Shown here: positions 21,484 through 46,989 of the stretch, piece after piece | Layout: every line of letters begins with the position of its first letter | Position numbering within the stretch: position 1 is the first letter of the stretch | Origin: Candidatus Latescibacterota bacterium | GTDB taxonomy: Bacteria > Latescibacterota > UBA2968 > GCA-2709665 | NCBI GenBank assembly: GCA_965219455.1 | Contig: OZ244744.1 | Coordinates: 4,192,001-4,256,000 of the forward strand | Reading direction: 5' to 3' | Length of the DNA stretch: 64,000 nt | Position numbers and translations under genes: made by a program | Notes under the pieces: model-generated | Databases searched by the model: none | The model's input: the letters and a program-made list of their open reading frames with translations, nothing else | What the model was told of the DNA's origin: nothing

Positions 21484-21508
21484 TCTTGATTGGCTGCAAG
21501 ACCTTTAT

Positions 21509-21583
21509 TCCGCTTCCCTACGCTGGCATAATCCAGATCAGGTTCCAAGGGTATGATCTCAGCCGTTCGGCACCCCACGCGGA
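21509..21583 (-). ncRNA. TPP riboswitch (THI element)
   Basis: Minus strand GGGGTGC..GGCTGAGA..ATACCC..GAACCTGATCTGGATTATGCCAGCGTAGGGAAG directly upstream of thiC; TTGACA-17-TATCTT promoter at 21623-21595. Confidence 0.95.
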
Positions 21584-21619
21584 TCTTACTATACAAGATA
21601 TAGGGGAAAAAGAAATCTG

Positions 21620-34596: not shown

Positions 34597-35565
34597 ATGT
34601 CTGGTTGGATTCGAAGCGTGTTTCTGTTGACGATGGCCGCAGGCGTGATATCCGGCTGCGGCGGTGACCGCGTTACCACCTCAATGGCGCCGGAAGCGGA
34701 CCCGCTTGCTGAGGGGGTCAACCCCGCAGCCCGGCAGGGGCACGCAGGACAGCCGTTGGGCAAACTGGCGATAGATGGGAATATGACGCAGGCCGTGGTT
34801 GTGGCAACGGTGCGGCAGGGCGGCGCGGCGCTTAGCGGCGTGACCGTGGAGTTGTCACGTTCTGTCTCGGGTTTAGCGACGGATTATGCATGGTCGGGCG
34901 CAACCGATGCGAACGGTGAGGCGCGCGTGGTGATTGGGGGAGGTAATGTAAGCGGTTACTATCGGGTGCGCGCCACTCAGGACGGGGTCGTGCTGGATTC
35001 CTGGTCGAGCATTCCGGTCAATGGCGGATACGAAGTGACTGTTGAACTGCCCGTTGGCGGGAAGGCGCGAGTGACGGGTTCATCGCCCCTTCCGAGCATT
35101 ATCGGTTCCTGGGGATACGTGGGAACGGATATGGTTGAGACGATAAGCGAGAACCTGGTGAATGCTATCCTCGAGCAGGGTCTGGTGGATAGTGCGACTG
35201 CCGTCTTTATCGTCAAGGAATTTACAGGCGATCTGGAGAGCAGCCTCCGCGACAGTGTCTGGTCGCCGATCCGGCGTCTTGATGCAGACGGCACTTTTGA
35301 GGGCCAGGACAGCACGGGTGCGTGGTCCGATACGGGTACCTGGAAGGTGAACGGCGATATTCTCACAATGGTGGAAGAAGACGGGCTGATTATGGAATGC
35401 TCGTTCGACGTGGAGGGGGACAACCTGACGCTCACGTTCACCAGGGAGCAATACATGCGGATTGTCCTGCAGTCGGCAGGGGAGTTGAACGAGGAGGACC
35501 AGCAGTTCTTTGATGCCATGCTCAAGGCGGACGACACGATCAGATTCTTCTTCGAAGCCCGTTAG
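34597..35565 (+). CDS. Lipoprotein with N-terminal Ig/carboxypeptidase-regulatory-like module and C-terminal lipocalin-like domain
   Basis: Lipobox ISGC; beta-rich 'GVTVELSRSVSG...GATDANGEA' module; 'IIGSW' and 'GTWKVNGDILT' lipocalin-like motifs. Start at MSGWI. Confidence 0.6.
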   Translation: MSGWIRSVFLLTMAAGVISGCGGDRVTTSMAPEADPLAEGVNPAARQGHAGQPLGKLAIDGNMTQAVVVATVRQGGAALSGVTVELSRSVSGLATDYAWSGATDANGEARVVIGGGNVSGYYRVRATQDGVVLDSWSSIPVNGGYEVTVELPVGGKARVTGSSPLPSIIGSWGYVGTDMVETISENLVNAILEQGLVDSATAVFIVKEFTGDLESSLRDSVWSPIRRLDADGTFEGQDSTGAWSDTGTWKVNGDILTMVEEDGLIMECSFDVEGDNLTLTFTREQYMRIVLQSAGELNEEDQQFFDAMLKADDTIRFFFEAR

Positions 35566-35783
35566 CCGCGGGATAAAGGTAAGTCAGGGGACCTGTGCTT
35601 CCCTGATCCCGTTCACGAAGCATGAATGAAGGATAAGAAATCCACTCTATGGCAGACTAAACGCGCCGGGAGCGAGTCCATCGCCCCCGGCGCGTTCGTT
35701 TTTTGACGAAAATTCGCACGACAACCAATTGCCGAGCGGACCGCGTGGGCAGTTGATGTTGCCAACACCCTTCGCTGCGTTCC

Positions 35784-35999
35784 CTACTCGCAGCGTACGA
35801 GAGGCCCAGTCCGAAGGCACGACGAACGGAGTTGACTCGTTGCATGCCCTGTGCCGCATCCGATCTCCAGGATTCTTCCATCGTCAGGAATCCCCGATAG
35901 GCATTCGACGCCGCCAATTGGTTCGCCGGGGTACCTGGGCCTGATTTCATCGTAACGGCATGCGACGCTGTCGAAGGTATTTCGTCGAGAGTCGGGCAT
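35784..35999 (-). pseudogene. Truncated class I SAM-dependent methyltransferase (N-terminal fragment)
   Basis: 'TFDSVACRYDEIRPRYP...RILEIGCGTGHAT' followed by loss of similarity and an early stop. Confidence 0.65.
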
Positions 36000-36358
36000 C
36001 GTATTCGTCCTGGCGGTCAGCATTCCAGCTTTATCGATATTCAAGGGTGCTATCGCGTAGCGCCTGGAATTCGAGGGTCTCCCATAATGATGTCCATGAA
36101 CGGGTCCAGGCGGCTCCGGATCTTTGCGACATCCCGAATCGTCACGCGCGTGTGAAAGTTTACGTGGCGGCCGCTGGATAAGATAATTCTCCACAATTGC
36201 AGTGTCAAACTTGGCCAGGCCTATTATCGCTCAAGAGAATGGCTTGACCAGCGACACTTGTGACGCCTTGGAGCGCGCCCGGAATACTCGGGGAAGGGAG
36301 TCTTCGGTCGCGGACCATCAGCGGGACGACTGGTTACGAGGCCGTTGTAGGCGGTACC

Positions 36359-37678
36359 CTACGGGTAGAGTCTTTTGGGCCCTCGATAGACGTACGTGAC
36401 TTCCCGGACGTTGTTGTATCCAAGCAGGATCATGAGCATTCGGGTGAGGCCAAAGCCGAATCCGCCGTGGGGCGGACATCCATATTTGAAAAAGTCCAGG
36501 TAGAACCGGAGCGGTTCTAAACTGAGACCTTTTTTTGCGGCTTGGGCAGCCAGAATTTCAGGGCGGTGTTCTCGCTGAGCGCCGGTGGTGAGTTCCAGGC
36601 CATTCCAAAGCAGGTCGAAGCTCTTTGTGACGGTAGGATCCTCTGGATACCTCATGTGATAGAACGGGCGGACGGATACGGGATAGTCGGTAAGGAAGAC
36701 GAATTCGTGACCGTATGTTTTTTGGATGTATTCGCACAGGATGCGCTCTCCCTGAGGGCACAGGTCGCCCTGTCTTTGTGGCGGGGGCGTGTAACCCAGT
36801 TCCGCTAGTCGGACGACGGCTTCTTCCATGGCGATTCGTGGGAAGGGATAAGCCGGAACGGTGACTTGACGGCCGAAGTGTTCGGCGATTGATTCGCCAT
36901 GGGATTTTTGCACGGCGAACAGTATGTGGCAGAGCCATTGTTCTTCAAAGACCATTAGATCCTCGTGGGAGCGGATCCAGGCAATTTCAACGTCGACGCT
37001 GGTGAATTCGGTGTCGTGGCGCGACGTGAACGAGGGGTTCGCTCTGAAGACGGGGCCAATTTCAAAGACTTTGTCGAAACCGGCAGCCATGGCCATCTGC
37101 TTGTAGAACTGGGGCGACTGAGCGAGGTAGGCTGTGGTGTCGAAATATGGAAGTTCAAAGAGTTCGGCGCCGGATTCGCTTGCGCTGCCCATGATTTTCG
37201 GGGTATGTATTTCGATGAATCCCTCTTGCTCCCAGAAGTTACGCATAGCGGCTTGGACGGTGGTCTGGATCTGGAAGAGCAGATGGTTCTCCGGTCGGCG
37301 CAGATCCAAATGTCGCCAGTCAAGCCTTGGTTCCAGACCGGGTGGATCCTCGCCAAATGGTTCGATAGGTAGTGGTGAGGCCGCCTTGTTTTCGATGTCA
37401 AGTTCGGCCAGTTGAATTTCGATGCCGCCGAGGCGGACGTTTGGATTCTTCACGACGCGGCCAGTGACTCGAACGGCGGATTCACGGGTAAGGGTGGAAA
37501 CTATGATTGCCAGGCCGGGATTCTGTTGTTTTTTGTGGACGACCTGGACCTTTCCCGTGGGATTGCGGAGAATGATGAATTGCATTTGTTTCTGGTCGCG
37601 AATGGTCTGTACCCATCCTCGAAGGGTGACGGTTTGTCCATTGTGATGACTGAGTCGGGGTATGGATATGTTTCTCAT
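36359..37678 (-). CDS. aspS: Archaeal-type aspartate--tRNA ligase (probably non-discriminating Asp/Asn)
   Basis: About 440 aa with no GAD insertion; OB-fold 'LRGWVQTIRDQ', 'YLAQSPQFYKQ', motif 2 'FRANPS..RH..EF', motif 3 'PPHGGFGFGLTR'; AAGGAG RBS. Confidence 0.92.
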   Translation of the reverse strand: MRNISIPRLSHHNGQTVTLRGWVQTIRDQKQMQFIILRNPTGKVQVVHKKQQNPGLAIIVSTLTRESAVRVTGRVVKNPNVRLGGIEIQLAELDIENKAASPLPIEPFGEDPPGLEPRLDWRHLDLRRPENHLLFQIQTTVQAAMRNFWEQEGFIEIHTPKIMGSASESGAELFELPYFDTTAYLAQSPQFYKQMAMAAGFDKVFEIGPVFRANPSFTSRHDTEFTSVDVEIAWIRSHEDLMVFEEQWLCHILFAVQKSHGESIAEHFGRQVTVPAYPFPRIAMEEAVVRLAELGYTPPPQRQGDLCPQGERILCEYIQKTYGHEFVFLTDYPVSVRPFYHMRYPEDPTVTKSFDLLWNGLELTTGAQREHRPEILAAQAAKKGLSLEPLRFYLDFFKYGCPPHGGFGFGLTRMLMILLGYNNVREVTYVYRGPKRLYP

Positions 37679-37722
37679 GTGATAATGCTCCTTTTTTAAG
37701 AGGTCTGAGTTTTCAGGCATGG

Positions 37723-37757
37723 AAAAACCGCCGCTGGTGTGCGACCAACGGCGGGTT
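37723..37757 (-). terminator. Attenuator terminator upstream of aspS
   Basis: Minus strand AACCCGCCGTTGGT-CGCAC-ACCAGCGGCGG-TTTTT; its 5' arm is perfectly complementary over 11 nt to 37796-37806 (antiterminator). Confidence 0.8.
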
Positions 37758-37775
37758 GTGTTTCAGAGTAAGTTT

Positions 37776-37916
37776 TCAGCCATATATCGGCCCGGCCCGC
37801 CGTTGGATAGGGTCATGGTGGTTATTATGGTGGTCGGGATTGACGTCCAGGCATACGGCTGGCGCGAGAGATTTCTGCGGGGTTGTGATGCGGAAGATAG
37901 AACAAGCCATGGTCAT
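37776..37916 (-). CDS. aspS leader peptide, Asp/Asn/His-rich (46 aa)
   Basis: AGGAG RBS, then MTMACSIFRITTPQKSLAPAVCLDVNPDHHNNHHDPIQRRAGPIYG*; the control codons sit immediately 5' of the antiterminator. Confidence 0.75.
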   Translation of the reverse strand: MTMACSIFRITTPQKSLAPAVCLDVNPDHHNNHHDPIQRRAGPIYG

Positions 37917-38077
37917 TGTATTGGTCTCCTGGTTCCGCACATCACCTATTGCCAACATTTACGAATTTAAGGAGTTTTCACGGGCGACACCGAAGCAATG
38001 CTCCGTTGGACGCCACCTTGAGTGTCATGCGCCCGCACTCAGAATACGTCAGAACACGCACAAGGTGCCGGGAAACC

Positions 38078-40526
38078 CTATTGCGCTTCGATGGCCGCCG
38101 TAACGATCTCGCCGTTCAGTATGACGTGAAGGCCGGGATCGAGCGGGTTGTTAAGCACGACGTCTAAATCACGCGCACGCGTGATGCTGGTCAGATCCGA
38201 TTCGGCCTCCTTCAGTGCCAATGAGAGCGCCTGATCATTTACGGTAAGTTGCAGCCGTTTCAGGGGTGCGCTGAGTGAGAGATTGGCGTTGCTCTTGTAA
38301 CGTCGGACCGCAGTGGCGATCTCAACCAGGAGGTTGCCATTTGTTTCGGCGCGTTCGTCTAAAAATCGCGGGTTCACGGACGGCCAGGTGGAGATGTGGA
38401 TGGATTCACCGTTCTCTGCGAACAGTCCAACGTAGATCTCTTCGGTTACGTAAGGCAGAAACGGCGCAAAGAGGTGGATGCAGGTTCGAAGCACGTGGCT
38501 GAGTGTATATTGCGCACCACCGGTTCCGATCCCGGTCTCGTCATACAGACGCCGCTTGGCCATTTCAAGGTAGTTGTCCGCCAGGTCTCGCCAGAAGAAG
38601 GTTTCGGTTTCACTCCTGGCGAGAGCGTATTGATAGTTTTGGAAAAAGCCGGTTGCCCGATCGATAAGGCGTTGTGTCCGCGCCAGGATCCAGCGGTCCG
38701 CGGGGGTCAGGAGTGGAGGTTCGACTGGAGTGCGGTATCCTTGTAGAAACCGTTCGCTGAAGCGGGCCACATTCCAGAGTTTGGTGACCAGTTTGTGACC
38801 GGCCTGGATTCTTTCTTCGCTGATTACCGTGTCTTTGCCGAATCCCGTTCCGGCCGCCCAATAACGCACGGCGTCGGCGGAATATTTCTCGATTATGTCT
38901 ATCGGCGCGGCCGGTCCGCCTCCTCGGCTCTTGCTGATTTTCCCCGTGCCTTCCGGAGCCAGGCCCCATCCGGAAATGCATATTTCCTTCCAGGGTATCT
39001 GTCCAAAATGGTGGTGAGATTTGACAATGGTGTAGAAAGCCCAGGTCCGAATGATTTCGTGTGACTGGGTGCGCATGGACATGGGGTAGACGTCCTGATA
39101 GAGCTCGTTGTCGCATAACCAACCTGCCGCGATTTGAGGACTGAGCGATGAAGTAGCCCAGGTGTCCATAACGTCCGTATCGGCTACCCAATCGTTGGCG
39201 CCGCAAGTACACCTTGCACGCGGGCAGGTTTCGAGCGGGTCCAATGGCAGTTCGGCTTCTGGCGCCACGGTGATCTTACCGCAGCCACCGCAATACCACA
39301 CCGGAAACGGGATGCCAAAATGGCGTTGGCGGGAGATACACCAGTCCCCAGTGCAGGTTTTCGATCCATTCAATGTAACGGGCTTTCATGTGCGGGGGAT
39401 GCCACCTGATATCTTCGCCCAGTTCGAGCCAACGGCTTTTGAAGTCAAGGACACGGATGAACCACTGCGGAGCGACGATGTATTCCACCGGCGTGTCGCA
39501 GCGATCGTGGACCCGAACGGACTGAGGTGCGGGCCGCCTGTCCACCATCAAGCCGCGTTCATCGAGTGTCTTCACGATCTGTCGTCTGGCTTCGGACACG
39601 GAAAGGCCTTCGAGAATGCCGGAACCCGCGGTCATCCTGCCGTTCCTGTCGATGGCGGAGACCAGCGGCAGGTTGTGTGAACGCCACCAGGCCACGTCCG
39701 CAGCGTCGCCGAAGGTGCAGCACATCACAGCGCCCGTGCCTGTTTCGGGATCCGCCCCTGTATCCTGCAGTACGGGCACATGATGGCCATAAAGGGGGAC
39801 TGAGACATTGCGGCCGATGAATGAACTATAGCGTTCGTCACTTGGATGGACGAAAATCGCCGCACATGCGGACAGAAGTTCCGGCCGGGTGGTGGCGATC
39901 GGCAGTGACATGCCCCCTTCAAGGTGGAAGTGCACGGTGACGAATTCACTCTCCCGTTCAATTTCGTTCAGTTCGGCCTGTGCGATTGCGGTTCCGCATT
40001 CCGGGCACCAGATAGCCGGCGCCTTTTTGCGGTAGACCAGTCCTTTGTCTAACAGGTCTATAAATGACTTCTGTGCAATGCGGCGGGCGGTGTCGCCCGC
40101 TGTGCGATAGGTATGTGACCAATCGACCGAAAGCCCCAGGCGAAGCCAGAGGTTCTCGTATTCGCGTTCAATGGCTTCACCGTGGTACATGCATTTTTCG
40201 ATAAACGCCTGACGGCCGAGTCCCGATGCGCTTGTTCCAAGGCGTTTTTCCACCAGGCGTTCGGTGGGGAGACCGTTGTCGTCATACCCCATCGGGTAGA
40301 AGACGCGCCGGCCGTTCATTCGCCAGAAGCGAGCCATGAAGTCGGCATGGCTATAGGAGTAGACGTGACCCATGTGGAGTTTTCCGGACACGGTCGCAGG
40401 AGGCGTGTCGATGGCGTACACGGGGCCTTCGGCCAGCCTTTCGAATTTGTAGATGTCCGACAGTCGCCAGCGCGCCTGAAGGCGAAGCTCTGTTTCCTGT
40501 GGGCGATATCGTTTGGATGAGGCCAT
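38078..40526 (-). pseudogene. valS: Archaeal-type (short) valine--tRNA ligase split by a single +1 frameshift
   Basis: 'IDTPPATVSGKLHMGH' (HIGH), 'DWCISRQR', 'DTWATSS', 'KISKS' (KMSKS); an extra G in TGG-G-GAC (plus-strand CCCC at 39346-39349) breaks ENLHW|DWCISRQR. May be a sequencing error. Confidence 0.88.
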
Positions 40527-40581
40527 TCTGATTCTCCCGGGAGGAAAATTCAACTCTTCGATTCCATAGATTTCGTTCCTC

Positions 40582-40767
40582 TCAACCGTCGAAGACGGCG
40601 AGTTCGAGGATCTTGAAATTACAGACTACATCCTGAAATCCTATCCGCCGCAGCCAATCGCGGTGTACCCTTGCGGCGGCCGGCATATTGGCCTGTTTGC
40701 CCTCCCGGTGGTAATATTCGTAAGCCATCTGTACGGATTGCCGCAATATCCCTTCCCGCCTCACCAT
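40582..40767 (-). pseudogene. C-terminal remnant of a class I methyltransferase
   Basis: 'DWLRRIGFQDVVCNFKILELAVFDG' resembles the C-terminus of small SAM methyltransferases; no SAM-binding motif remains. Confidence 0.45.
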
Positions 40768-40791
40768 CAGAATTCCTTGTAGTGTGAATAC

Positions 40792-40826
40792 AAAAAAAAA
40801 CCGCCATCGAGTGGACTCGATGGCGG
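40792..40826 (-). terminator. Attenuator terminator upstream of valS
   Basis: Minus strand CCGCCATCGAG-TCCA-CTCGATGGCGG followed by T9; alternative pairing partner ATGGCGG at 40865-40871. Confidence 0.85.
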
Positions 40827-40852
40827 GATAATGATTCTCTTCGTTTTCGCTG

Positions 40853-40978
40853 CTATACCATAAGCCGCCATAGGGTCCTATGATTATTGGCCGAATTGAC
40901 ATCGTTTACAGGGCGTACGGCGTCGTCTACACTTCGCGGCAGCGTGAGGTTCAGGAACCGGTGGCTGTTGACGTTCAT
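40853..40978 (-). CDS. valS leader peptide, Val/Asp/Asn-rich (41 aa)
   Basis: MNVNSHRFLNLTLPRSVDDAVRPVNDVNSANNHRTLWRLMV*, lying between a consensus promoter and the terminator. Confidence 0.7.
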   Translation of the reverse strand: MNVNSHRFLNLTLPRSVDDAVRPVNDVNSANNHRTLWRLMV

Positions 40979-41020
40979 GATATTCTCTGTGTTGTAGGTT
41001 TCCGGCATCGAATTCACAAT

Positions 41021-41049
41021 AATATAGAAGACCGTCCCGATGATGTCAA
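41021..41049 (-). promoter_or_regulatory. sigma70-type promoter of the valS-aspS leader
   Basis: Minus strand reads TTGACA-17 bp-TATATT. Confidence 0.7.
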
Positions 41050-41093
41050 GGCGATTCCGGATTCTACCGGCCCTTACGCCCGTGTCCATGCCC

Positions 41094-42110
41094 CTACCCG
41101 CGGCGTTTCCGTCCCCCGGATTTCATTTCATCCAGCTTGGCCTTTTGTTCATCCGTAAGGATGGCGTCGAGGTCATTCTCGAAATCTTCTTTCAATTCGT
41201 GCAGCGTGTACCTGAGACCCGAACGGTCGCCTGACTCCTGAGCACTGTCGATCGCGGATTTAACGTCGGCCTGGTAATCCTCATACAATTCCTTGAGGTC
41301 CGCGATCTGTTGGTCGCTCAGGCCAAGGGAATCGCTCAGTGCGGCGATGTAATTTCCCCGCCCGCTGTCCTTCCTCCGGGAGGTTGCATTGGCCTTGATT
41401 TCCTCGAGTCTGGTCTGTTGCTCGTCCGTGAGGACATCGTTGAAGTCCTCTTCGAATCCCAGTCTCAATTCCTTCAGACTCTCCCGAAGCCCTGTACGGT
41501 CTCCCGACGCTTTGGCGTTATCGATCAGGGCCTTGACGTCGGCCTGGTAGTCATCGTGCAGTTCATTCAGATCCGCGACCTGTTCGTCGCTCAGGCCCAG
41601 CGAGTCGGTCAACGACGCGATGTAATTCTCCCACGCTTTGTCCTTCCTCCGTGCGGCCGCATTGACCTTGATTTCCTCGAGTCTGGTCTGTTGCTCGTCC
41701 GTGAGGACGTCGTTGAAGTCCTCTTCGAATCCCAGTCTCAATTCCTTCAGACTCTCCCGAAGCCCGGTACGGTCTCCCGACGCTTTGGCGCTATCGATCA
41801 GGGCCTCGACGTCGGCCCGGTAGTCTTCATGCAGTGCATTCAGATCCGCGACCTGCTGGTCGCTCAGACCCAGCGAGTCGGTCAGCGCCGCGACATATCG
41901 TTCCCATCCATTGTGGTTCCCGCGCCGAAATTTGCTGTAATTGTCGCCATCAAATTTGGAACCTATCTCGTCCGTGGACGCCTTTGAGGCCTGAGATGAG
42001 CTTTCAGTGGATCCAGTCCCGGTTGGAGACTCGACGGGGATCTTGTTACCGCACCCGAGGAGTGTGAAGGAGACGACGACGGACGTGATGGCAAATCTGC
42101 GAAACGACAT
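41094..42110 (-). CDS. Lipoprotein with three tandem Spy/CpxP-like (LTxxQ) repeats
   Basis: Lipobox LLGC; three ~91-aa repeats 'LGLSDQQ...VLTDEQ'. Confidence 0.8.
   Translation of the reverse strand: MSFRRFAITSVVVSFTLLGCGNKIPVESPTGTGSTESSSQASKASTDEIGSKFDGDNYSKFRRGNHNGWERYVAALTDSLGLSDQQVADLNALHEDYRADVEALIDSAKASGDRTGLRESLKELRLGFEEDFNDVLTDEQQTRLEEIKVNAAARRKDKAWENYIASLTDSLGLSDEQVADLNELHDDYQADVKALIDNAKASGDRTGLRESLKELRLGFEEDFNDVLTDEQQTRLEEIKANATSRRKDSGRGNYIAALSDSLGLSDQQIADLKELYEDYQADVKSAIDSAQESGDRSGLRYTLHELKEDFENDLDAILTDEQKAKLDEMKSGGRKRRG
41120..41900. repeat. Intragenic tandem repeat with a 273-bp period
   Basis: Near-identical DNA blocks starting at 41401 and 41674 (TCCTCGAGTCTGGTCTGTTGCTCGTCCGTGAGG...); the third copy is more diverged. 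Confidence 0.85.
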
Positions 42111-42141
42111 TTCTGTTTCCTTTCTATCCCGGCTGATTCGG

Positions 42142-42657
42142 TCAAATCGAAGAGGGGCTGGCGTCGTTGCGGTCGGGACGTGGATGTCCCATTCCCTTCA
42201 AGCCCCTCCGGTAGCCACCCTTGCGCCACATCTTGCGAAATCCTTTTTTCGGACGATCCCTACGCATTTCGCGAAGCATGTTCCGTTGCTCCGGGGTCAG
42301 GACGCTGTTGACTTTGAGTCGGTGGTTGACCCGGTTTTCCAGGATCAGGGATCGGGCGTTGTTGACGGTGCCAACCCGCGCTTTGACCTCGGCAGGGCTC
42401 GGTTCGTCCTGCCCCATAGCGGCTCGGAGATCCAGCCTGGCCACCTTCAGGTCGGCGCGCAACTGCGCCATCTGTTTGGCCCGCTCCAGGTTGAGGCTTT
42501 CCAACCTGGTCCGCTGTTCTGCCGAGAGTTCCAGGGCTGCCATTGGCGACTTCCGGGCTTTCCAGCCACGTTTGCCGCGATGGGCGTTTGAGGGCAGCGC
42601 CCACGCGATGACAACAACGGGAATGAGAATTGCAGCGATGAAAGCTAGACGTTTCAT
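42142..42657 (-). CDS. Spy/CpxP/ZraP-family periplasmic protein
   Basis: Signal peptide; 'LELSAEQR' and 'VLTPEQR' LTxxQ motifs; AAGGAG RBS. Confidence 0.85.
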   Translation of the reverse strand: MKRLAFIAAILIPVVVIAWALPSNAHRGKRGWKARKSPMAALELSAEQRTRLESLNLERAKQMAQLRADLKVARLDLRAAMGQDEPSPAEVKARVGTVNNARSLILENRVNHRLKVNSVLTPEQRNMLREMRRDRPKKGFRKMWRKGGYRRGLKGMGHPRPDRNDASPSSI

Positions 42658-42748
42658 GGTTTGGCTCCTTTCGGTTTTCCCGGCTATTCGTCTTTAATGG
42701 CGGTTACCCGGCGTGTCGAGGATGCGCATCCAACAATGGCTTTACACC

Positions 42749-42780
42749 TTTGACAGATGGTTGCATCCGTGCGTTCCCTG
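42749..42780 (-). promoter_or_regulatory. ECF sigma promoter motif (copy 2)
   Basis: Minus strand CAGGGAACGC-N16-GTCAAA, matching the copy upstream of the ECF sigma gene. Confidence 0.7.
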
Positions 42781-42786
42781 ATGCGA

Positions 42787-43680
42787 TCAGAAATTGAATG
42801 TCCTGCCACCGGGTCTACGCCTGAAGCGGCGCTCCCATCCCATGCGTCGCTCGATGCCGGCAGTGATTTCTTTGAACTTCTCTGCCTGATTTGCACGCAG
42901 CAGGGTTTTGATTTCAGACCAGGTCTTCCCGGTTATGGACGCGAATTGCTCGTCGCGTTTCTGGAATATCCGGCGGGTTGCCTCCCGTCCGTCCTTCTCG
43001 ATCTGATCGATTTTGGCCCGTTGCTCGACCGATAAATCCAGGTTCCACCTTCGGTAGAGTCCTCGAAAGGGAACCGGTTTGCGTGCCTTGATTTGTTTCA
43101 ACTGCTGCGGGGCGAGCACGCCGTACATTTTTTCGCGTGTCTGTTCCACCCTTGTCCTCAACTGCTTTCGGATTTTCCTGCGCATTTTTTGCATCGACGC
43201 CCAATTCTTTTTGAGGATACTTCTCACGTTCGCCTGTTGTTCTTCGTCGAGGTCGAGATCCCTGGTGAGTTGTCGCAGGATAATTTCCGGAGACACGGGG
43301 CTTGTCAATTCGTCGAATCTCTCCTGCTGATCCGGCGTGAGTAGATCCCGAATCCTGGCCCACGTTTTTCGGGTGACCGACTCGGTCTTCGCGCGGATTT
43401 CCCTGCGCATTTTGCCCATCGTTAACCGACCTTCATCCAGGATCTTTTCGATTTCGGTCCGTTGCTCGCCGGTCAGTTCGAGGTTTCGAACGTATCGATT
43501 GAGCAGGCGTTCCGAAGTTGAGCCAAACGGGGGTGTGCGGCGGCGTTCAGACCGGTCGGAAATCCCTTGACCTTTGCCAGGGGGACCCCAGCGCTGGTAC
43601 GTGGCGCCCAGGGCTGCTCCGAGGACGAAAATGCCCAACGCAAGCAGGACGGCCTTCATGCGGGTGGCGTTTGTCGACAT
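42787..43680 (-). CDS. Membrane-anchored protein with multiple Spy/CpxP-like LTxxQ modules
   Basis: N-terminal TM 'LLALGIFVLGAALGA'; 'LELTGEQ', 'LLTPDQQ', 'LDLDEEQQ', 'LDLSVEQ'. Confidence 0.75.
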   Translation of the reverse strand: MSTNATRMKAVLLALGIFVLGAALGATYQRWGPPGKGQGISDRSERRRTPPFGSTSERLLNRYVRNLELTGEQRTEIEKILDEGRLTMGKMRREIRAKTESVTRKTWARIRDLLTPDQQERFDELTSPVSPEIILRQLTRDLDLDEEQQANVRSILKKNWASMQKMRRKIRKQLRTRVEQTREKMYGVLAPQQLKQIKARKPVPFRGLYRRWNLDLSVEQRAKIDQIEKDGREATRRIFQKRDEQFASITGKTWSEIKTLLRANQAEKFKEITAGIERRMGWERRFRRRPGGRTFNF

Positions 43681-46820: not shown

Positions 46821-46852
46821 AACAAAAAAGCCGTCGAATCGGCATCGACGGC
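46821..46852 (-). terminator. Attenuator terminator upstream of ilvB
   Basis: Minus strand GCCGTCGA-TGCCGAT-TCGACGGC-TTTTTTGTT; CGGCGGCGGCAGGGC at the end of the leader can pair with GCCCGCCGTCG. Confidence 0.8.
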
Positions 46853-46881
46853 GGGCTGAATTCGTGTATTTGCCAATATGG

Positions 46882-46989
46882 CTACGAGCCCTGCCGCCGC
46901 CGGGATACGGATACAAAAAGGCCGCTGTTCCGGTTTACGCTATTGTCGACCAGGACTGCAACGGGCATATCGCGTAAATTTAGAACCAT
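46882..46989 (-). CDS. ilvB leader peptide, Val/Leu-rich (35 aa)
   Basis: AAAGGA RBS; MVLNLRDMPVAVLVDNSVNRNSGLFVSVSRRRQGS* (7 Val, 4 Leu); too short for the supplied ORF track. Confidence 0.75.
   Translation of the reverse strand: MVLNLRDMPVAVLVDNSVNRNSGLFVSVSRRRQGS

Follow-up and report, generated by a model that had tools for sequence, protein, structure and literature searches.

A candidate leader-peptide attenuator, homologous to the ilvB leader, before a spare valS-aspS module in Latescibacterota

Transcription attenuation by a translated leader peptide is textbook knowledge for amino-acid operons and for pheST. In the pheST attenuator of Escherichia coli (leader peptide pheM), a short leader carries codons cognate to the synthetase that it precedes, the transcript chooses between an antiterminator and a terminator, and read-through follows when the ribosome stalls. 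The multivalent ilv leaders, found before ilvGMEDA and ilvBN in enterobacteria and before ilvB in Actinobacteria, contain codons for more than one amino acid, valine included. Here we describe a leader, L1, that precedes second copies of valS and aspS in a genome of Candidatus Latescibacterota (GCA_965219455.1, contig OZ244744.1, positions 4,192,001 to 4,256,000; this whole 64,000-nucleotide (nt) stretch is the window, to whose first letter the coordinates below are counted). We consider it likely, with a probability of roughly 0.7, that L1 is a working or recently working classical leader-peptide transcription attenuator; from its sequence we infer leader translation, ribosome stalling and amino-acid-dependent read-through.

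Relevant passages of PMC1262725 cite pheST as the attenuation precedent for synthetase genes, predict classical attenuation for trpS2 and leuS of Streptomyces, and describe T-boxes as used in Firmicutes; a passage of PMC4833913 cites a 2010 survey on the attenuation of aminoacyl-tRNA operons (Lopatovskaya et al.). T-box leaders (RF00230) perform the same task as that proposed here, raising synthetase transcription when tRNA is uncharged. In the full-text literature we found no description of leader-peptide attenuation for valS or aspS, Lopatovskaya et al. 2010 and supplementary lists lying outside the scope of that search, and nothing that links Latescibacter and attenuator.

Anatomy, conservation and alternative pairings of L1

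All features of L1, of the second leader L2, of the second copies valS2 and aspS2, and of the ilvB leader are read on the minus strand of this genome (G000). L1 consists of the following parts, in which the leader is an open reading frame (ORF).

41021-41049 (minus strand): promoter-like site, TTGACA (41049-41044), 17 nt, TATATT (41026-41021); 11 of 12 consensus positions
40853-40978 (minus strand): leader ORF L1, 41 codons from the ATG at 40978, then TAG (40855-40853); peptide MNVNSHRFLNLTLPRSVDDAVRPVNDVNSANNHRTLWRLMV
40862-40875 (minus strand): antiterminator arm, leader codons 35-39, complementary to the terminator 5' arm
40792-40826 (minus strand): intrinsic terminator, 11-base-pair stem (8 G-C), 4-nt loop and T9; CCGCCATCGAG-TCCA-CTCGATGGCGG at 40826-40801, nine T at 40800-40792

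A first-pass annotation of the window had reported the promoter, the ORF, the ATGGCGG arm and the 11-base-pair hairpin with T9, and each is found where it was placed. The promoter-like site scores highest of the seven in 35500-43000 (shuffled sequences give 3.6 +/- 1.8 sites). The core of the arm, ATGGCGG (40871-40865, codons 37-39), is exactly complementary to CCGCCAT of the terminator 5' arm and ends 9 nt before the stop codon, and an A-rich spacer of 26 nt separates the ORF from the hairpin. A promoter belonging to valS itself, downstream of 40792, would have told against the annotation; no sigma-70-like site was found on the minus strand between 40800 and 40526.

The gene before L1 encodes a Spy/LTXXQ-type lipoprotein (42110-41094, minus strand; Pfam LTXXQ), and the hairpin is the first terminator after its stop codon at 41094. 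It could be argued that the hairpin merely ends this gene and that the leader is a chance frame. However, the hairpin lies 268 nt past that stop, with a conserved promoter between; L1 persists in G013, although the lipoprotein gene there is shortened to 31 codons, and in G015, which lacks that gene altogether; and G002, G008 and G014 have the lipoprotein gene without L1. We give this explanation the least credence of all those considered. The lipoprotein gene (41094-42110, minus strand) is itself composed of three internal repeats of about 90 codons, 70-72% identical in DNA, whose copy number varies among genomes.

Relatives were drawn from 22 genomes of the same family (f1), 41 relatives for blastn, and 168 genomes of the phylum for the count of valS2. 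The annotation had named an unconserved leader as evidence that would refute it; comparative alignment finds the L1 unit kept in nine Latescibacterota genomes of three genera, G000 included, and in the metagenome contig L258. With the 567-nt spacer as query, blastn matched 9 of the 41 relatives at E <= 0.001 (again counting G000), the match in G008 being only a 37-nt piece of the hairpin. An L1 covariance model scores 181-233 bits in 8 of the 22 family genomes, six of genus g1 and two of genus g2, and 18.7 bits for a divergent copy in G017 (genus g4) that was spotted by reading ORFs. A pattern scan of metagenomes matched 67 stretches, among which L258 alone is a true homologue by the model (49.6 bits). 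Weak model matches in G006, G008 and G020 (about 29 bits) were dropped, as no neighbourhood gene stands beside them.

Within these homologues the leader frame is open in 10 of 10 (ATG in eight, GTG in two) and its stop register is unchanged. Indels inside the ORF measure 6, 3 and 3 nt, and 1-nt indels occur in the spacer after the stop. Variable columns number 24, 23 and 18 of 41 at codon positions 1, 2 and 3 (8 sequences), with no excess at the third. Because indels are in frame and the third position does not stand out, L1 seems to be kept as a frame with particular codons and not as a protein sequence. The alignment thus points to no selection on the L1 protein as such, as expected of a regulatory leader and not of a small protein. 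The sequence CCTTGAC and a -10 box of TAtcTT type are retained in the nine genomes and in L258.

These observations also bear on whether L1 might be a free-standing small gene, producing a 41-amino-acid (aa) protein or a small RNA of about 215 nt, unconnected to the genes downstream. Such a gene would have its own promoter and strong terminator, as L1 does, and neither Rfam nor Pfam contradicts it: no Rfam family matches the L1 region (at the gathering threshold and also at E up to 10), the T-box model RF00230 finds nothing in 37500-41300 even at E up to 10, and Pfam has no match for the 41-aa L1 ORF or for a 61-aa ORF downstream of it. Yet the variation across codon positions is unlike that of a conserved protein, Trp gives way to Arg exactly where the RNA partner changes, and the whole 223-nt transcript is not unusually stable when folded (z = -1.03). 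Furthermore, L1 always precedes same-strand members of one module, vanishes with that module, and is homologous to the ilvB leader described below. A free-standing gene is, in our estimation, very improbable.

The regulatory codons can be read from the composition of the leader. A recount agrees with the 6 Val, 3 Asp and 7 Asn reported earlier. Relative to 1126 long ORFs of G000 (V 7.69%, D 6.22%, N 3.18%), Asn at 17% stands at about four times background, Val at 14.6% at about twice, and Asp at 7.3% near it, so that the proposed enrichment holds for valine and asparagine and fails for aspartate. Four of the six Val codons are GTA, the rarest Val codon genome-wide at 12.4%. Across nine leaders there are 3-5 GTA among 4-7 GTN codons each (the count for G017 includes its GTG start) and 4-7 Asn codons in 41-43, with Asp near background. 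The Val and Asn codons of L1 occupy codons 17-34, the last Asn codons lying more than 15 nt upstream of the arm; because of this placement, the arm would remain outside the footprint of a ribosome stalled on them. The annotation had proposed that one leader senses the charging of three tRNA classes. Judged by codon content, valine sensing by L1 is likely and asparagine sensing, on behalf of aspS2, is plausible; the aspartate part of the proposal falls away, as there is no codon enrichment.

Pairing statistics were computed on nine aligned sequences with 500 shuffles. In the terminator 95.2% of cells pair, with two compensatory pairs; none of the 500 shuffles reaches this paired share and 6 reach its covariation. 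In the antiterminator (arm columns 122-135 with the terminator 5' arm) 78.6% of cells pair, compared with 28-48% when the partner is slid, and six core pairs are retained in 9 of 9 sequences. In G017 and L258, at one and the same position, the terminator pair changes from A-U to G-C, the arm from U to C and the leader peptide from Trp to Arg; the arm there reads CGGCGG opposite CCGCCG or CCGCTG, and genera g1 and g2 keep the T-A pair. Folds forced into the antiterminator are 4-18 kcal/mol less stable than terminator folds, so the antiterminator would have to win kinetically, as it does in known attenuators. RNAalifold further predicts a 1:2 helix that joins GCCAC (codons 5-9) to GUGGC of the arm. 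The anatomy of a leader-peptide transcription attenuator, as first claimed for this locus, is accordingly seen in its parts, their order, their conservation and their mutually exclusive pairings.

The downstream module and the second leader

The genes that L1 precedes form a module in the order L1, methyltransferase, valS2, L2, aspS2. The methyltransferase is of class I and uses S-adenosylmethionine (SAM).

40582-40767 (minus strand): remnant of the C-terminus of a class I SAM methyltransferase, 61 codons; aligns to the last ~60 residues of the intact gene
38078-40526 (minus strand): valS2, second valine-tRNA ligase, in two ORFs (425 and 431 codons); one extra G at ~39346
37776-37916 (minus strand): leader ORF L2, 46 codons, core LDVNPDHHNNHHDP; peptide MTMACSIFRITTPQKSLAPAVCLDVNPDHHNNHHDPIQRRAGPIYG
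37728-37806 (minus strand): L2 antiterminator arm CCAACGGCGGG (37806-37796) and terminator (37754-37728)
36359-37720 (minus strand): aspS2, aspartate-tRNA(Asn) ligase type; NF003483 481.7 bits and TIGR00458 382.3 bits, both above cut-offs

The L1 T-run and the valS2 start (ATG 40526) lie 265 nt apart. This gap is not plain leader: it holds the methyltransferase remnant at 40767-40582. An intact methyltransferase of 246 aa, matching Methyltransf_25, follows the same leader in genus g2 (G015, G019); in all of genus g1 the gene has decayed. Its matches are confined to generic class I models, with no rRNA or resistance family among them. The gene directly gated by L1 ancestrally was thus probably a SAM methyltransferase.

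The valS2 gene is interrupted by a single nucleotide, GGGG here at 39340-39350 and GGG in G013 and G009. The exact contig in run X1, which may be the source sample, keeps the extra G; it is missing from related-strain contigs in X5, X6 and X21. On NF009687, which we take to be an archaeal-type ValRS, the intact orthologue of G013 reaches 1003 bits, and valS2 is 44% identical to a Methanosarcinales record compared with 32% to the canonical ValRS of its own genome. A ValRS match (E <= 1e-30) is present in 20 of the 22 family genomes; valS2, by comparison, occurs in only 12 of the 168 phylum genomes, seven in f1 and five in family f4. In addition to aspS2, G000 encodes a bacterial-type AspRS (613-aa frame), an AsnRS (490.6 bits), GatB and an AsnB-type asparagine synthetase (395 bits, above cut-off); asnA was looked for in G000 and not found. 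We considered aspS2 as the sole route to asparagine, its role in Thermus and Deinococcus, and this is ruled out by the AsnB-type synthetase together with AsnRS. The suspicion that valS and aspS might be second copies is borne out by the canonical ValRS, the bacterial-type AspRS, AsnRS, GatB and AsnB in the genome. Both genes are accessory, and they may be inducible.

A second attenuator that gates aspS again had also been suggested. L2, with its leader rich in Asn, Asp and His, is present, and it is conserved in six genomes with an N/D/H codon run in each. Its arm CCAACGGCGGG is a perfect 11-nt complement of the terminator 5' arm CCCGCCGTTGG, and the two co-vary in G017 (CGACGACGGGC with GCCCGTCGTTG). 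By its codons L2 would be a clearer Asn/Asp sensor than L1. The T-run of the L2 terminator abuts the first ATG of the aspS2 frame, whose true start may be an ATG 14 codons further in.

The module has a patchy history. Sister species lack it: in G002, G008 and G014 the convergent downstream gene lies directly against spy3, the last of the Spy-like genes. Elsewhere it has been lost in part: valS2 is gone in G015 and reduced to scraps in G019, aspS2 is gone in G013, and in G017 an insertion sequence with a DDE_Tnp_4 transposase sits between the L1 terminator and valS2 (L058:7083-8063). Judging by this distribution, the module is accessory, unstable and decaying. Because the leader outlives its genes, L1 may be under selection wherever anything downstream remains.

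The same decay could instead mean that L1 once gated methyltransferase, valS2 and aspS2 and is here a decaying leftover that controls nothing of consequence. This would agree with a methyltransferase that is down to 61 codons and carries many non-synonymous differences from G007, with a valS2 that is frameshifted here and separately split in G011, and with the losses, whole or partial, listed above. Set against this, L1 itself shows no decay: promoter, start codon, frame, arm and terminator have all been preserved, and L1 of G000 is 89% identical to that of G007. Furthermore, aspS2 and L2 are intact, and what splits valS2 is one additional G in a G-run, which may not be fixed, given contigs of close relatives without it. 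A mere leftover is the most serious of the alternatives and still an unlikely one.

The ilvB leader and other leaders of the lineage and beyond

We propose that the attenuator reading can be extended to the origin of L1, for which a candidate parent lies in the window.

46824-46989 (minus strand): ilvB leader (ORF 46989-46882, 35 codons, MVLNLRDMPVAVLVDNSVNRNSGLFVSVSRRRQGS) with terminator; Val-rich

An nhmmer profile of L1 matches the ilvB leaders of G019 (E=1.2e-14), G017 (9.5e-12) and G010 (1e-6), and none of 700 shuffles. The ilvB leader lies 6 kilobases (kb) upstream of L1 in a conserved block of ilvB, sigE, anti-sigma and three Spy-like genes. These matches make L1 a paralogue of the ilvB leader, and we regard it as a duplicate of the resident ilvB attenuator. 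Leaders of this lineage share a design in which the arm falls within the last leader codons and a spacer of 20-35 nt separates the stop from a terminator beginning with CCCGC. G015 (L170) differs from its sister G019: the 420 nt that precede its provisionally mapped ilvB start showed neither leader nor terminator.

Three further leaders in this genome lie on contig C1.

G000:C1:15095-15370 (L174): Met-rich leader ..ARFSMRMMSSF.., 52 codons, with a TTGACA-17-TATCTT promoter, arm CGGCGGT and terminator
G000:C1:2220500-2220930 (L176): GTG-start leader rich in Trp, Tyr and Phe (..YGFSWRGYFYRSYRWYYRE..), with arm GCCCACG and terminator, before trpE
G000:C1:3141850-3142165 (L175): His/Thr-rich leader (..YAHTAHRHTHHNGS..) with terminator, before a 240-aa SAM methyltransferase

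The first of these, outside the window, ends up 20 nt from a short MetRS gene (TIGR00398, 396 bits) that it precedes; this is a second copy, the canonical MetRS being encoded elsewhere. The last is a second case of a leader-gated methyltransferase; the two methyltransferases as paralogues were ruled out, since only the SAM motif aligns.

The relationship to ilvB leaders helps to weigh another explanation, in which L1 senses stress or an antibiotic: its VRPV stretch would act as an arrest peptide, and an inhibitor or a slowdown would switch on the methyltransferase and drug-insensitive spare synthetases. Methyltransferases and second synthetase copies do act as resistance genes elsewhere, the genes gated by L1 are of just these two kinds, and GTACGCCCNGTA, which encodes VRPV, is invariant in 10 of 10 homologues. 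However, the methyltransferase matches generic class I models only, and VRPV recurs in the ilvB leader of G019 (whose peptide reads ..SVVQAVRPVEDLVGV..), before a biosynthetic gene. Moreover, in 6 of 8 sequences the VRPV stretch is predicted to fold into a hairpin with CUGCGGGGC, and this pairing would explain why its nucleotides do not vary. Sister leaders, finally, are rich in the amino acid that suits the gene behind them (Met, Asn, aromatic). Peptide arrest as the trigger is, to our minds, quite improbable.

The design recurs before valS2 in f4, a second family of the same class. There valS2 is not followed by aspS2, and two terminator hairpins precede it in 5 of 5 loci (by eye); a script assigned a leader ORF to 8 of these 10 hairpins. 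Enrichment in Val is clear for the f4 leaders of genus g25 (such as MTKRIPYAVYYAQPAGLVPSVVVQVRTAVCVV) and only partial for those of g23; the f4 leaders contain 0-2 Asn. In a comparison of two lineages, then, L1 has 4-7 Asn where aspS2 is in the operon (f1) and the leaders have 0-2 where it is not (f4), which fits dual sensing by L1, although ilvB leaders of genus g1 also hold Asn.

The nearest relatives of ValRS2 outside the phylum are from Chloroflexota, at 58-64% identity. About 18 of their loci were fetched, and all four tested at an E-value threshold have a T-box match directly upstream of valS (L085, L086, L094, L099). These matches score 57-87 bits (E 4e-10 to 7e-18), span the full model length and lie about 50-360 nt upstream of valS; being below the gathering score of 93, they are missed by a default Rfam scan, and at the gathering threshold no T-box match was found in 11 Chloroflexota valS loci. 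We had considered the Chloroflexota valS leaders as homologous leader peptides and rejected this, since they are T-box-like. The earlier remark on T-boxes, made for Firmicutes, thereby finds support, with matches below the gathering score, in the closest outside relatives of valS2 themselves.

As a separate observation, a thiamine pyrophosphate (TPP) riboswitch (RF00059, 75 bits) lies at 21498-21587 (minus strand) of the window.

Proposed operation of L1 and comparison with known systems

We propose the following operation for L1 as an attenuator. Transcription would begin from the promoter at 41049-41021, and a ribosome would translate the 41 codons of L1. While charged tRNA is plentiful, the ribosome would reach the TAG and cover ATGGCGG, the terminator would form and the transcript would end. 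When Val-tRNA (the UAC isoacceptor, reading GTA) or Asn-tRNA is scarce, the ribosome would stall at codons 17-34, leaving the arm free to pair with the emerging CCGCCAT, and RNA polymerase would continue into the accessory operon. It would read in turn the methyltransferase (a remnant here), valS2, the attenuator L2 and aspS2. The leader itself would have arisen by duplication of the resident ilvB attenuator 6 kb upstream.

Several observations weigh against this account. The covariation of the antiterminator amounts to one evolutionary event, and its shuffle control is not significant, 109 of 500 shuffles reaching the paired share. The predicted 1:2 helix has no compensatory change and is lost in G017. 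The regulatory codons of L1 lie between predicted region 1 and region 2, outside that helix; in the trp attenuator they lie inside region 1. The Shine-Dalgarno sequence is weak (AGAGAA or AGGA types), and the Val codons are scattered (6 of 41), with no run. Asn codons are partly common to L1 and its presumed parent, as ilvB leaders of genus g1 hold 1-4 of them (4 of 35 in both G000 and G010). In this genome the first downstream gene is a remnant and valS2 is frameshifted, so that the switch may gate little besides aspS2. In the RNA run X21, contigs 90-95% alike cover parts of valS2 and none covers L1.

Taken as a whole, the first-pass annotation was sound as observation and is sustained in part as interpretation: the attenuator anatomy, L2 and the second copies stand, and the enrichment in Asp does not. 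Beyond this, we put forward a wider hypothesis, tentatively and with more doubt than confidence. Latescibacterota may possess a self-copying family of attenuators, in which the ilvB leader was duplicated, re-tuned from Val to Val and Asn, and captured spare synthetases that had been acquired horizontally from T-box-controlled donors. L1 and L2 would then form a two-stage gate for two amino acids and, together with the Met-leader metS2, part of a back-up charging set inducible by starvation.

Traced to a duplication of the ilvB leader, L1 would illustrate a host placing a foreign gene under regulatory elements of its own. To judge from the leaders described here, an uncultured phylum may apply classical attenuation widely, to ilvB, trpE, metS2, valS2 and aspS2, and spare synthetases there appear conditional, quickly gained and quickly lost. 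The points of interest are the origin from an ilvB leader, the tandem partner L2, the spare-copy cargo and the contrast with T-boxes in a donor-like lineage.

Compared with known systems, L1 is close to pheST, with which it has in common a short leader with synthetase-cognate codons, the choice between antiterminator and terminator, and the proposed read-through on stalling. It differs in gating a second-copy synthetase, presumably of archaeal type, and in mixing Val with Asn codons; its operon, moreover, originally opened with a methyltransferase gene and contains a second attenuator, and the phylum is Latescibacterota. Like the ilv leaders it holds codons for more than one amino acid, Val included, but Asn is its second amino acid, and the genes that it gates encode synthetases, where the ilv leaders serve biosynthetic operons. 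The attenuators of Streptomyces trpS2 and leuS, as the relevant passages present them, are likewise leader-peptide attenuators of synthetases known from computation, one of them on a second copy (trpS2); those passages concern other amino acids, genes and phylum, and single attenuators where ours are in tandem. Finally, L1 is proposed to sense charging through the translating ribosome, in contrast to the T-box, which does so by binding tRNA. The locus offers a clean natural comparison within one valS lineage, in which apparent T-box control, by tRNA sensing, in Chloroflexota stands beside the proposed sensing by ribosomes in Latescibacterota.

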